Made by a program: the position numbers and the translations under genes. Below the pieces are notes generated by a model, which was given only the letters and a program-made list of their open reading frames with translations, ran no database searches and had not been told where the DNA came from. This document shows, piece by piece, positions 10,121-51,859 of a stretch of DNA of 64,000 bases. The stretch is from Eledone cirrhosa (taxonomy: Eukaryota). The stretch covers positions 156,736,001 to 156,800,000 of the forward strand of contig OZ024742.1 of the NCBI GenBank assembly GCA_964016885.1. The letters are read 5' to 3'. Each line of letters begins with the position of its first letter. The first letter of the stretch is position 1.

Positions 10121-10185
10121 ATGTAGAATATATATATATATATATTAAAATACAAATATTAATAAAATAATTGTTCTTTTGATCA

Positions 10186-10248
10186 ATTACATTTTATTAT
10201 ACATATTTCGGATGTACAACAGTACGTTCTCATCAGACAAAATATAAT
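10186..10248 (-). ncRNA. Minimal type I hammerhead ribozyme
   Basis: ATTATATTTTGT CTGATGA gaacGTAC tgtt GTACatcc GAAA TATGTA TA ATAAAATGTAAT; 12-bp stem I. Confidence 0.8.
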
Positions 10249-11689
10249 GATGCATGTCATACCCTTAGATGTTAAATGGTTAAGATTTAATCAAGTTAGT
10301 GATTAAGCTAAGAGAAAATTCAACATTTATACCCTAATAATGAGAAATGCGAAAACGTAATAAATTCAATAGAGAATGTATGAGTAAGAAAAACCTTGGT
10401 TAATGTGACAACTATTGAGATTTTAAAGTGTATACTACAAGTTATGTTTATTTAGGAAAACATCTCATGAATTATAACAGTCAATGAGAGCCACTGAAAT
10501 AAGATTTGTAGAGAGGGAAAGATAAGAGCGGGTAATATATGCAGAAGGAGATTTTTTTCCGAAAGTTAAACGGTTAAGTTTGAAAATATGTAATTTATGC
10601 AATTTTAGGGTGAAGAATCAAGATTTTAGGTTTTTTTTTAAAATAGCTGGTTATTTATAGTTATTAGTTTTGTAAATTATATAAGTGTGTTAACATTTCT
10701 AAACTTATGAATGTTATGGGGATAACCTTTAAAGGAATTAAATGGCCAGCTAAAAGGAAAGTTTGCACTGTTGAATATTTTCCTAAATGTAAACTTTAAC
10801 GAAGATAATCAATGTCAACATAATCGGTATGTAAAGCTTATGAAGTACTCTATTGTTAGAAATATTTAAATAACGATTTTGTATATAGATATATATTAAT
10901 GAGCCAGTATATATTAAGTAAATGATAACGAATATAAAAATAAAATAATAGATTGAGGCATGCTAAATTTAAATATATACCCATATATAACAGGGTGTAA
11001 ATGCATTAATTATTCATAGTTCGAAATAAACAATAATCAAGAAATTTAGAAGTTAACCAGAAATTGTGTATAGAAAGATATAGAGAGGTATATATGGATA
11101 TATATTAGGTATTAGTGATACAGTATACTTTAGTTAAATGATAACGGTTATAGTTTTATATAATAACATTCGACGTGTTACAGTTAAATGCATATATATA
11201 TATCAGAAAAACAATAATAAATGCATGGATAATTCAGAGTTCAAAATAAGGTCTATAATAATTTATAGTTTGGATATTTGCTCTATATTTGAATCATGGA
11301 TATAAAAATGCAGTAGGTATATTTAAAAACTTAGAAAATATAATTACATACATATTATAAATAAGAGATCAAAAATGTAAACGCATGAGAGATTCACAGT
11401 TAGAGATAAGTTCCGTAAAAATGTAATTAAAATTAGGTAGGAAGATGAAGATAGAGAAATAAAGAAATAATGGTATGGATCAAAGTTAATAATATTATGT
11501 TATGTATATCAATGTTCCGGCGTGTTATTGAACAAGTGTCTTTCATTCTAGCGTTATTTCTTCTATAGATAGTTATAGGATAGTGCAATATTAAAGGCCA
11601 TTAATGTTTTTCCCTATTGATTATATACGCCTGAAAACCAAGTTTTTAATGGTTTAATGTTTCTCTCTCTTTTTTTCTAGTTTTGTGGG

Positions 11690-12318
11690 AGGCTAAAAAT
11701 GTGGATGTAGCTTTATGAAGGCAACTAGAGAATAATTCACTTTTTTGTTATTAATAATGAACAGCGTCTCCATTGTACAGAGCGCGCAGTTATTTGATAT
11801 ACTAGAGTTGCGTTAAACTCCACAGATCCGAAGTTTGTCAAAAGAATGGAGTATTTTAAATTCCTCTCTTTTAATGACCATATGAGCTGTGATAAAGAAG
11901 TGGATGATTTCCTCTTGGAGTTCGAGAATGAGCATTTATGGTTGGCAAATCTGGCTTTAAATGTAGAAGAAGTCGATCATATGTAGTTGTATGTATTGTG
12001 ATCAGATTTTACGGTGCATTTATAAACCAAATTACTATCTAGACAATTATTTTGTAAATGGCAATCAGTTTTATTTCTACAATTACATTTTGGTTTAGTA
12101 TAATTTATGTTAACTCTACTATTAAGATCATTATGCTGGTTTTGTTTTAGGATTTTAGTGTTTAATTTGGCAATATTTTGGGCCATGTTCATAGTTGTAG
12201 AATACGAGAATTTAATGGTATGCCTATTAAAAATGGAATGGTATTTATGGTGAGTAGGGAAAGAGGTGTCCAAAGCGTTAAAGAATAATGTTGCAATTTG
12301 TGTTTTAACTGCTACCGA
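11690..12318 (-). pseudogene. PLE C-terminal GIY-YIG endonuclease fragment (Neptune-like, Cys-rich linker)
   Basis: FPTHHKYHSIFNRHTIKFSYS, CNCRNKTDCHLQNNCL, LVYKC, NYI*ST, FKARFANH, CALCTME; stops and frameshifts present. Confidence 0.8.
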
Positions 12319-12780
12319 AATTACGCTCGAATGAAAGACACTTGTTCAATAACACGCCGGAACATTGATATATATAACATAATATTATTAACTTTGATCC
12401 ATACCATTATTTTTTTATTTCTCTATCTTTATCTTCCTACCTAAGTTTTAAATGTTAGTTTAATATCTAACCCATTCATTTTTACGGAACTTATTTCTAA
12501 CTGTGAATCTTTCTTGCGTTTACATTTTTGATCTCTTATTTATAATATGTATTTAATTATATTTTCTAATTTCGCTTCTGAATTCGTTTAGCAAGATTCT
12601 TTATCTGAAAACGTGTGTTGAAACCGATATTGTTATACTTTGGGAGGGTCATGTTGCCAATAAGAAATACACGCACCAGTTGTTTTCACTTCAATTTATT
12701 ATAATACATTTATAAATTTAGGAATTTATAAATTTCCGGTTGGTTGGTTGGTTCCACAACCAGATGGTTGTTTATATATT

Positions 12781-12823
12781 GACAAAGTTCTTTCGTCACA
12801 CATTATGTGACCTCTTCAGTGAC
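12781..12823 (-). ncRNA. Minimal hammerhead ribozyme (left arm of iii)
   Basis: gtca CTGAAGA g GTCACAT aat GTGTGAC GAAA GAAC TT tgtc. Confidence 0.7.
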
Positions 12824-13429
12824 TGGGGATTTTTCTTTGTTTTTTGTGGCTTTCCTTTGTTCTGTCCTACGCCATTTTGTTTTTGTGTGTGTGTTGTGTG
12901 CTTAGATGCGCATCTGTTACATCCGGGTGTCTGTGTGTGTTTATATTCGTTTATTTACTTGTTTATTTACATGTTACTGGTTGGTTGTTTGTTCTAAGTG
13001 CGTGTGTGTTTTCATTTTGTCCTTAATTGTATGGTGTGATGTTGCTGTCCCACTCATGTTTTCTATTTAATTTTGGTTGTAATTCATTTATGTTTATTGC
13101 CTCTATAATTTGTCTAAACATTGCGTCTTTTCTTTTCGCAATGTTTAGACAAATCACAGAGGCAATAAACAAAAATGAATTACAACCAAAATTAAATAGA
13201 AAATATGAGTGGAACAGCAACATCACACTTTACAATTAAGGATAAAATGAAAACGCACACGCACATAGAACAAACAACCAACCAGTAACATGTAAATAAA
13301 CAAATAAATAAACGAATATAAACACACACAGACACCCGGATGTAACACATGCGCAAACTAAGCACACAACACACACAAAAAAACAAGATGGCGTAGAACA
13401 GAACAAAGGAGAGGCACACAAAACACACA

Positions 13430-13472
13430 GTCACTGAAGAGGTCACAGAATGTGTGACGAAAGAACTTTGAC
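13430..13472 (+). ncRNA. Minimal hammerhead ribozyme (right arm of iii)
   Basis: GTCA CTGAAGA g GTCACA gaatg TGTGAC GAAA GAAC TT TGAC. Confidence 0.8.
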
Positions 13473-14586
13473 AATATATAAACAACCATCTGGTTGTGGA
13501 ACCAACCAACCAACCGGAAATTTATAAATTCCTAAATTTATAAATGTATTATAATAAATTGAAGTGAAAGCGTCTGGTGCGTGTGTTTCTTATTGGCAAC
13601 ATGACCCTCTCAAAGTATAAGAATATATTTTCTAAGTTTTGAAATATACCTACTGCATTTCTATATCCATGATTCAAATATAGAGCAAATATCCAAACTA
13701 TAAATTATTATAGACCTTATTTTGAACCCTGAATTATCCATGCATTTATTATTGTTTTTTCTTATATATATATATATGTATTTAACTGTAACACGTCGAC
13801 TTTTATTATATAAAATGTTATTTTGAACTATGAATAATTAATGCATTTACACCCAGTTATATATGGGTATATATTTAACTTTAGCATGCCTCAATCTATT
13901 ATTTTATTTTTATTTTCGTAATCATTTACCTAAAATATACTGGCTCATTAATATATATCTATATACACAATCGTTATATAAATATTTCTAACAATAAGTA
14001 CTTGATAAGCTTTACATACCGATTATGTTGACATTGATTATCTTCGTTAAAGTTTACATTTAGGAAAATATTCAACAGTGCAAACTTTCCTTTTCGTTGG
14101 CCAGCTACATCCTTTAAATGTTATCCCCAGAACATTCAGAAGTTTAGAAATGTTAACACACTTATAGAATTTACAAAACTAATAAATATAAATAACCAGC
14201 TATTTTTAAAAAAATCCTAAAATCTTGATTCTTCACCCTAAAATTGCATAAATTACATATTTTCAAACTTAACCGTTTAACTTTCGGAAAAAATCTCCTT
14301 CTGCATATATTACCCCCTCTTATCTTTCCCTCTCTACAAATCTATTTCAGTGGCTCTCATTGACTGTTATAATTCATGAGATGTTTTCCTAAATAAACAT
14401 AACTTGTAGTATACACTTTAAAATCTCTATAGTTGTCACATTAACCAACGTTTTCCTTACACACACTTTCTCTATTGGATTTATTACGTTTTCGCATTTT
14501 CTCATTATTAGGGTATAAATGTTAAATGTTAATCACTACCTTGATCAAATCTTAACCATTTAACATCTCAGGGTATGTCATGTATC

Positions 14587-51367: not shown

Positions 51368-51377
<10 letters not shown>
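49620..51377. mobile_element. Fold-back Penelope-like insertion (iv) in (TA)n
   Basis: Inverted arms 49755-49905 / 51228-51377; unique tail 49620-49754; microsatellite-rich spacer; hammerhead. Confidence 0.75.
51171..51313 (+). ncRNA. Type I hammerhead ribozyme with an approximately 100-nt domain II
   Basis: TTCATTATTT CTGAAGA [about 104 nt] GAAAC GATC GTT AAATAATGAA; perfect 10-bp stem I, palindromic stem III. Confidence 0.75.
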
Positions 51378-51423
<46 letters not shown>

Positions 51424-51469
51424 ATAATTCAAAATATTAAAAAAATAGATATTCTTTGTGATCAAGTAT

Positions 51470-51534
51470 ATTGTATTATACATATTTCAGAGGTACTGAG
51501 TTAACTTCAAGAGTACATTCTCATCAGATAAAAT
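51470..51534 (-). ncRNA. Hammerhead ribozyme (left arm of v)
   Basis: ATTTTAT CTGATGA...GAAA TATGTA TA ATACAAT. Confidence 0.7.
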
Positions 51535-51626
51535 AAGATGATGCATGACATACTGTGACATAGTAGATGGTTAAGATTCAGTCATGGTAACCATCTACTA
51601 TGTCAGGGTATGTCATGCATCATCTT

Positions 51627-51691
51627 ATTTTATCTGATGAGGACGTACTGTTGAGGTTAACTCAGTACCTCTGAAATATGTATAATAAAAT
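51627..51691 (+). ncRNA. Hammerhead ribozyme (right arm of v)
   Basis: ATTTTAT CTGATGA ggacGTACTG..CAGTACctct GAAA TATGTA TA ATAAAAT. Confidence 0.8.
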
Positions 51692-51829
51692 TTACCTGAT
51701 CACAAGAATATCTATTTCGCTAATAATTTGAATTAATATTAATAACTCCGGAAAATCATAACAGTTGAGTGCTTCCAATCTATTGTAAAACTCATTCTTT
51801 GATTTATTCATTGAACCTTGTTTAACCTT

Positions 51830-51859
<30 letters not shown>

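Follow-up and report, generated by a model that had tools for sequence, protein, structure and literature searches.

Penelope-like elements (PLEs) are retroelements for which inverted, 5'-truncated copies with a tail of 30-40 bp on one end are standard (PMC8557442, PMC3846280), and minimal hammerheads occur in their pseudo-long terminal repeats (pLTRs), including pairs on opposite strands (PMC4209133). The origin of the inverted repeats with a one-sided tail has been named as an open question (PMC8557442). The sole in vitro study, on a Poseidon element, found two internal start sites bracketing the tail, with both strands extended, a predicted dimer and no homology to the cut DNA, and reported no conserved signal at these sites (PMC11167929). 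In this study, a stretch of 64,000 nucleotides from Eledone cirrhosa (contig OZ024742.1, positions 156,736,001 to 156,800,000 of the forward strand; hereafter the window) was analyzed, which contains seven head-to-head inverted insertions of PLEs, numbered (i)-(vii). The arms of those from the Hydra clade end at two fixed sites, each located 0-8 nt before one copy of a bulged stem-loop; the stem-loop likely positions the reverse transcriptase (RT) on the RNA, with the nicked target strands priming one at each site.

The window is AT-rich (39% GC) and filled with microsatellites, and the seven insertions were identified by self-comparison of the 64 kb after simple-repeat masking. Each insertion is asymmetric, with one short arm and one long arm. 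The tail that extends the long arm was independently verified in (ii), (iii), (v) and (vi) and partly in (iv), and in (i) and (vii) it is presumed solely because it lies in the stretch that separates the palindrome from the following TA run. A motif scan detected type I minimal hammerheads in each arm of (ii), (v) and (vi), and those of (iii) and (vii) were recognized by eye, as was a hammerhead-like motif in (i); no intact hammerhead was found in (iv), and Rfam returned no hammerhead match in the window. Because the hammerheads face outwards in both arms, each arm is the 3'-terminal part of a copy truncated at its 5' end.

The initial annotation had claimed that the short arms of independent copies stop at the same nucleotide, and this was confirmed for (ii) and (v), which belong to one family: both short arms end in one alignment column, directly before TAATAACTC (ends 10142/14693 and 51421/51739). 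The end in (v) is uncertain by approximately 4 nt owing to one mismatch 4 nt before it; the automatic end call for (v), which ran into TA, was set aside. The distance between the hammerhead cut and the short end measures 56 nt in (ii) and 55 nt in (v) (cuts after 14637 and 51684) rather than the 45-50 nt given there. The long arms of both copies continue for approximately 92-93 nt further and can be aligned with one another to within a few nucleotides of the (TA)n run. The shared stop word AA(C/G)AATAT of the right arm of (iii) (13626) and a solo copy (750), and the AATA/TTAT-type words at the short-arm ends of (i), (iv), (vi) and (vii), were likewise found as described. The features of (ii), (iii), (v), (vi) and the solo copy are as follows.

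10142..11560, minus strand: short arm of (ii); its 3' end (10142) abuts (TA)n; the hammerhead has its core at 10236 and its cut after 10198.
11728..12309, minus strand, which is that of the short arm: spacer of (ii), a broken Hydra-type GIY-YIG region with a CxCx5C linker (tblastn E=6e-35).
12317..14693, plus strand: body of the long arm of (ii), split by (iii); the hammerhead has its core at 14599 and its cut after 14637.
14694..14786, plus strand: tail of (ii), approximately 92 nt, ending at (TA)n.
14699..14727, plus strand: bulged hairpin of (ii), ACTC/GAGT variant, 5 nt past the short site.
12569..13626: palindromic insertion (iii), short arm on the right (end 13626) and long arm on the left; hammerhead cuts after 13468 and 12785, by eye.
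12569-12626: 58-nt tail on the long (left) arm of (iii).
12558..12569, plus strand: left copy of the 12-nt target-site duplication of (iii).
13624..13635, plus strand: right copy of the 12-nt target-site duplication of (iii), overlapping the short end by 3 nt (TAT).
480..750, plus strand: solo copy of family (iii), whose end at the short site adjoins (TA)n.
51421..51830: palindrome (v), same family as (ii), short arm on the left and long arm on the right, with a tail at 51740-51830; hammerhead cuts after 51477 and 51684.
51745..51773, plus strand: bulged hairpin of (v), ACTC/GAGT variant with a decayed upper stem, 5 nt past the short site.
55505..58763: inverted insertion (vi), short arm on the left and long arm on the right; hammerhead cuts after 55545 and 58660.
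57612..58220, minus strand, which is that of the short arm: spacer of (vi), a Hydra-type GIY-YIG region (E=2e-53).
58701-58763: 63-nt tail on the long (right) arm of (vi).
58706..58729, plus strand: canonical bulged hairpin of (vi), GCTC...GAGCACT, 5 nt past the short site.

Insertion (iii) lies in the right arm of (ii), and the left arm of (ii) supplies the corresponding empty site, through which the 12-nt target-site duplication was recognized. Fixed ends of this family were also seen in contigs from X3 and X4, two runs of one public sample that may not be of the same species as the window, aligned to 12480-14870. At 12627, at least 150 (X3) and 161 (X4) contigs break into (TA)n, as do at least 36 (X3) and 39 (X4) at 12569; these positions are two of the six loose ends listed per run, beside 3606 further rows. 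Among these listed loose ends of X3 and X4, none belongs to the family of (ii) and (v), and reads from restriction-site-associated DNA sequencing (X6 and X7) begin at fixed sites and their listed loose ends are uninformative on termini. The depth of X3 drops from approximately 232,000 (14668) to approximately 4,900 (14749), but this was not used as evidence of the short end because divergent tails would look alike. The summed depth of family (iii) is very high in X3 and X4, which suggests a very abundant family. Its end and tail (12569-12655, minus strand, and 1000-1080, plus strand) contain a possible start of an open reading frame (ORF; MTLPKYNNIGF...), as in Penelope and Poseidon, and the 38-residue peptide has no match among 1.84 billion proteins. 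Two candidate explanations for the end positions were discarded: the hammerhead does not serve as a ruler, since families differ in its distance from the end (40-158 nt), and an obligatory addition of TA by slippage was dropped because (iii) has no added TA.

The word reported in the initial annotation for (ii) and (v), TTAATAACTC, leads into a bulged stem-loop, which was examined in 77 Hydra loci from metagenome contigs (from the best 80 of 286 relatives). The interval from the hammerhead cut to the ATG is mostly 145-190 nt in these loci, and the hairpin motif GCTC-Y...R-TH-GAGC-ACT lies in between. Of the ORF starts, 54 are preceded by an untranslated region (UTR) of 140 nt or more; among these, 36 have two copies of the hairpin, eight have one and ten have none; in the controls, no coding region (0/54) contained any hairpin and only 1 of 5400 shuffles contained two copies. 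The hairpins are spaced by a median of 62 nt (55-83, n=35), and the tail length equals this spacing; the tail of (vi) is 63 nt. At the three pairs next to the 2-nt bulge, Watson-Crick pairs were counted in 76/79, 48/73 and 34/44 cases, compared with shuffled maxima of 59, 35 and 24, over 79 distinct instances with a 2-nt bulge, counted by register, with a control that ignores relatedness. Other registers remained within the shuffled ranges in this count, and the fourth upper pair was not above the shuffles (17/39, maximum 20). Pairs were counted by register rather than with a covariance model because MAFFT failed to align the 5' strand of 68 instances. When six tail regions were folded, none reached a significant z-score, and a comparison with Rfam, covering the window and 10 of the 77 loci, gave no family for the hairpin.

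In the window, the strict pattern matches three times, each 5 nt past the short end of (ii), (v) or (vi), the ACTC/GAGT variant having been admitted to the pattern only after it was seen; ACTC/GAGT in (ii) and (v) is a two-sided change. A long-loop version was found post hoc in (iv) with a relaxed pattern. Since the relaxed-loop scan gives approximately 0.9 chance matches per shuffled window and has one off-target site near 24600, this hairpin is weaker evidence. An intron in the tail of (vi) was also considered and dropped, as it is not conserved in (ii) and (v). The features of (iv) are as follows.

49620..51376: inverted insertion (iv), short arm on the right (end 51376) and long arm on the left, with a tail of approximately 135 nt.
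49667..49750, minus strand: long-loop version of the hairpin in (iv), 4 nt past the short site.

The arms of (iv) (49767-49903 and 51229-51365) are 100% identical over 137 bp, and its interior is filled with microsatellites.

The positions of element ends relative to the hairpins were obtained by aligning downstream or inverted copies to intact UTRs. This gave 46 rows, 23 of which were dropped because they were duplicates or inversion centres, lay in low-complexity sequence or marked only where the homology between two different families stops. Of the 23 junctions kept, 16 lie 0-8 nt before a hairpin, six at copy 1 and ten at copy 2 (expected 11-15%, p<1e-8), the junctions having been chosen with the distances in view, so that the count is 16/46 if none are dropped. 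The rule holds across families with proteins that are only approximately 50% identical. Two related copies (L013:2759 and L018:2571) stop within the hammerhead core rather than at the hairpin. Several others (L017, ~975-3378; L022, ~3010-5560; L001; L004) begin as well as end at the hairpin, with TA on both sides; such unit-length insertions could derive from RNA in circular or tandem form, or else from cleavage at the site of the element itself. In one relative, a small hammerhead element of another kind (L068:2636-2707) has inserted into the same TA run and ends approximately 5 nt past its own cut site.

The ends also overlap with TA-rich target DNA. A TAT/ATA word stands just upstream of 55 of 76 hairpins, compared with a background of 24%. 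At six junctions in the window, the overlap in TA phase has a mean of 3.8 nt versus 1.1 nt by chance (p ~0.0003), and at ten TA-flanked junctions in relatives it has a mean of 3.5 nt versus 0.95 nt (p ~0.001), with L017 scored as 0 although another alignment gives 8, the lower value being retained. The pairing with a nicked (TA)n target proposed in the initial annotation is thus retained as an overlap of 3-5 nt, and not as a general rule, because several junctions enter unique DNA and PAc, the Anolis element studied in vitro, starts without homology (PMC11167929); TA pairing therefore helps but is not required.

Some of the insertions can be assigned to a known clade. Insertions (ii) and (vi) are Hydra-clade PLEs, as judged from their endonuclease remnants: these match the C-terminal part of full-length proteins of approximately 707 residues, which carry the RWK, DKT and CxCx5C motifs and agree with the published Hydra alignment. 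The motifs RWK, DKT, CxCx5C and CxxC define the Hydra clade, which prefers (TA)n targets (PMC8557442). The CxCx5C linker is present in the remnants of both (ii) and (vi) and CxxC in that of (vi), whereas RWK and DKT were seen in the homologues, the window being without that RT region. Pfam alone found no endonuclease in (ii) and (vi). Insertion (v) was placed with the Hydra clade through its DNA likeness to (ii), and no coding remnant was found in (i), (iii), (iv) and (vii), of which (iv) shows only the long-loop hairpin. The GIY-YIG remnants, the minimal type I hammerhead in the pLTR and the inverted 5'-truncated copy with a one-sided tail and a short target-site duplication are those of endonuclease-containing (EN+) PLEs.

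Compared with the EN+ PLEs described so far, the insertions are alike in their head-to-head 5'-truncated copies, one-sided tail, size of target-site duplication, pLTR hammerhead and (TA)n targets; however, the described tails are 30-40 nt rather than the 55-150 nt found here, and the tail lies in the 5' UTR for Hydra here rather than at the start of the ORF (PMC8557442, PMC3846280). The described Hydra clade shares CxCx5C, CxxC, a unit of less than 3 kb, the hammerhead and the (TA)n target, along with the RWK and DKT motifs of the homologues, and the hairpin pair stands in its published consensus sequences but goes unmentioned (PMC8557442). In the supplement of that paper, the consensus of Hydra-1_Ajap, as seen by eye, contains the two hairpins and has its start 2 nt before hairpin 1, and those of Hydra-2_Ajap and Hydra-2_Amil end shortly past hairpin 1; the word 'hairpin' appears in neither main text nor supplement and 'stem-loop' is absent from the main text. 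PAc, a Poseidon element, is alike in having two internal starts bracketing the tail, which would correspond to the genomic footprint seen here, and in extension of both target strands, AT-rich cleavage and a stem-loop at the start, but it starts in a single AC-rich stem-loop 111-118 nt inside the ORF (PMC11167929). In contrast, two separate conserved bulged hairpins lie upstream of the ATG here, and where PAc lacks homology between start site and cleaved DNA, an overlap of 3-5 nt exceeds chance at TA-flanked junctions, without being obligatory. No description of the hairpin pair was found in the literature searched, including passages of PMC7229834, PMC12910113 and bioRxiv 10.64898/2026.07.22.740005, with most subscription papers, Repbase notes and bioRxiv supplements outside the search. 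The two-end phenomenon of PLEs is known, and the paired hairpin as a cis-signal is apparently undescribed. The inference of the initial annotation is largely published already, since the tail was known and two internal starts were shown in vitro in 2024; its proposal of a defined internal site plus a more distal one stands as far as two fixed ends are concerned, in agreement with the starts bracketing the tail (PMC11167929), while priming as opposed to DNA cutting is still inferred here, and the annotation, which took its distances from the hammerhead, had missed the twice-present hairpin that defines the site.

How these ends would arise can be outlined as follows. The endonuclease would make staggered nicks in AT-rich DNA, and antisense DNA would be added at both 3' ends, as the target-site duplication implies. 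Each 3' end set free by a nick would anneal to an AU-rich word just 5' of a hairpin, so that hairpin 1 would serve one target strand as its priming site, giving the short arm, and hairpin 2 the other strand, giving the long arm with its tail. Priming would probably take place on one read-through RNA, possibly via two enzyme molecules, and the two cDNAs would then be joined head to head. The use of one RNA template is suggested by arms with near-identical starts and shared private bases: the arms of (iii), (v) and (vii) begin within approximately 15 nt of each other, and the two arms of (iii) have in common one base (12707/13546) that is absent from 98-99% of the family depth in X3 and X4. A more specific proposal, which we advance tentatively as a possibility, is a two-part RNA switchboard in which two bulged hairpins each load the telomerase-related RT beside an AU-rich primer-alignment word, and both nicked strands prime on one RNA.

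Such a scheme has partial precedents among other retroelements. In L1 twin priming, both target strands prime, and the 3' stem-loops of long interspersed nuclear elements (LINEs) and hepadnavirus epsilon recruit the RT. Twin priming yields non-overlapping inversions at variable internal sites, whereas the present insertions have overlapping arms and two fixed sites.

That the two sites are priming sites rather than DNA cut sites is suggested by the sequences, and DNA cutting at the same sites, although unlikely, is the strongest alternative and a real rival. The endonuclease would recognize the motif, presented either by a DNA intermediate or by tandem copies in the genome, and cut the adjoining AT-rich word, thereby resolving the insertion with or without the tail. 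The copies that begin at the hairpin after a TA run (L017 and L022, and also L001 and L004) fit such cutting, the tail has been ascribed to endonuclease-mediated resolution (PMC8557442), DNA cleavage by the D. virilis enzyme is reported to depend on the tail, and the Anolis enzyme to cut the pLTR of its own element (PMC11167929). However, the bulged stem, variable loop and covarying pairs resemble a folded single strand rather than a duplex site, the in vitro starts bracket the tail in a relative (PMC11167929), and later self-targeting insertions could account for the 5' junctions. A single priming event at the distal site, followed by fold-back synthesis on the first cDNA that halts at the proximal site and microhomology joining to the target, appears quite improbable. 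Self-priming has been proposed for such palindromes (PMC3846280), and the close arm starts and shared base described above would be expected from it, but two cDNAs on one RNA explain the same facts, and solo copies end at the short site. Fold-back from the long site would put the spacer on the long arm, which is seen only in (i) and, by approximately 7 nt, in (iii), whereas it belongs to the short arm in (iv) and (v) and lies, as coding sequence, on the strand of the short arm in (ii) and (vi), so that neither arm is a simple fold-back copy of the other. Fold-back from the short site cannot give the tail, and two priming events thus fit best. One relative (L024) has one long and one short end in the opposite arrangement, a long body with a short inverted copy. 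Finally, the shared ends might reflect common descent from one genomic copy or run-on of alignments into AT-rich DNA, since each family has only two copies in the window and TA ends are ambiguous by a few nucleotides; this reading is very improbable, as flanks differ, (iii) has its own target-site duplication, at least 150 contigs break at one base and the rule holds across the divergent families, and it is largely refuted by the contig breaks and the hairpin-end rule in relatives.

Several observations nevertheless count against priming at paired hairpins. Hairpin 2 is not seen in the window, where the long arms stop before it, and (i), (iii) and (vii) have fixed ends yet no such hairpin, which makes the signal clade-specific; nor was the hairpin seen in the part examined of the published consensus of Hydra-1_Obim. 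Seven of the 23 junctions fall outside the 0-8 nt interval (two inside the hammerhead, two in the ORF, one beyond the hairpin, one at 12 nt and one at an uncalled variant hairpin), and those of L009, L019, L023 and L061 enter unique DNA without a TA run. The strand test was weak (8 G-U versus 3 A-C), and short and long ends occur in contigs at approximately 4:1 rather than 1:1, in counts of contigs and not of copies. The choice of junctions with distances in view, the covariation control that ignores relatedness and the copies that begin at the hairpin belong with these points.

The two insertions without the Hydra hairpin or a verified tail, (vii) and (i), are as follows.

59030..59486: palindrome (vii), short arm on the left, running into (TA)n; putative AC-rich tail of 40-56 nt on the right arm; no Hydra hairpin.
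9251..10051: palindrome (i), short arm on the left; right arm runs on for approximately 150 nt; no Hydra hairpin.

In insertion (i), a unit of approximately 410 nt is partly repeated in tandem, the left arm begins exactly at the long-end position, and TTCGGT stands a few nucleotides past both its short and long sites, perhaps as another paired signal. Its insertion target is a broken coding stretch (7660-9250, plus strand), which has no Pfam match and which we take to resemble the C-terminus of a Naiad-type RT. An extra partial pLTR copy lies within (vi) on the strand of the short arm (56995-57092) and stops approximately 10 nt before the short site. Immediately beyond the long end of (v), a (TA)n run is enclosed by a 45-bp inverted repeat (51860-52017), which is symmetric and has no hammerhead. 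Elsewhere in the window, LINE-like RT elements (RVT_1, zf-RVT) occur between 18994 and 46953 in several copies, 85-99% identical and in both orientations, and a unit of approximately 1.3 kb is repeated three to four times at 84-91% identity between 1266 and 6062.

A covarying hairpin of 25 nt, present twice, predicts both ends to within 8 nt, which lends itself to a simple mutagenesis test. The hairpin pair also provides an exact rule for annotating the boundaries of Hydra elements, and moving a hairpin might set the cDNA start of an enzyme that performs target-primed reverse transcription. If true, the RNA switchboard would be the first defined cis-signal to account for the asymmetry of the inverted insertions and for the PLE tail, whose length would be set by the spacing of the hairpins.

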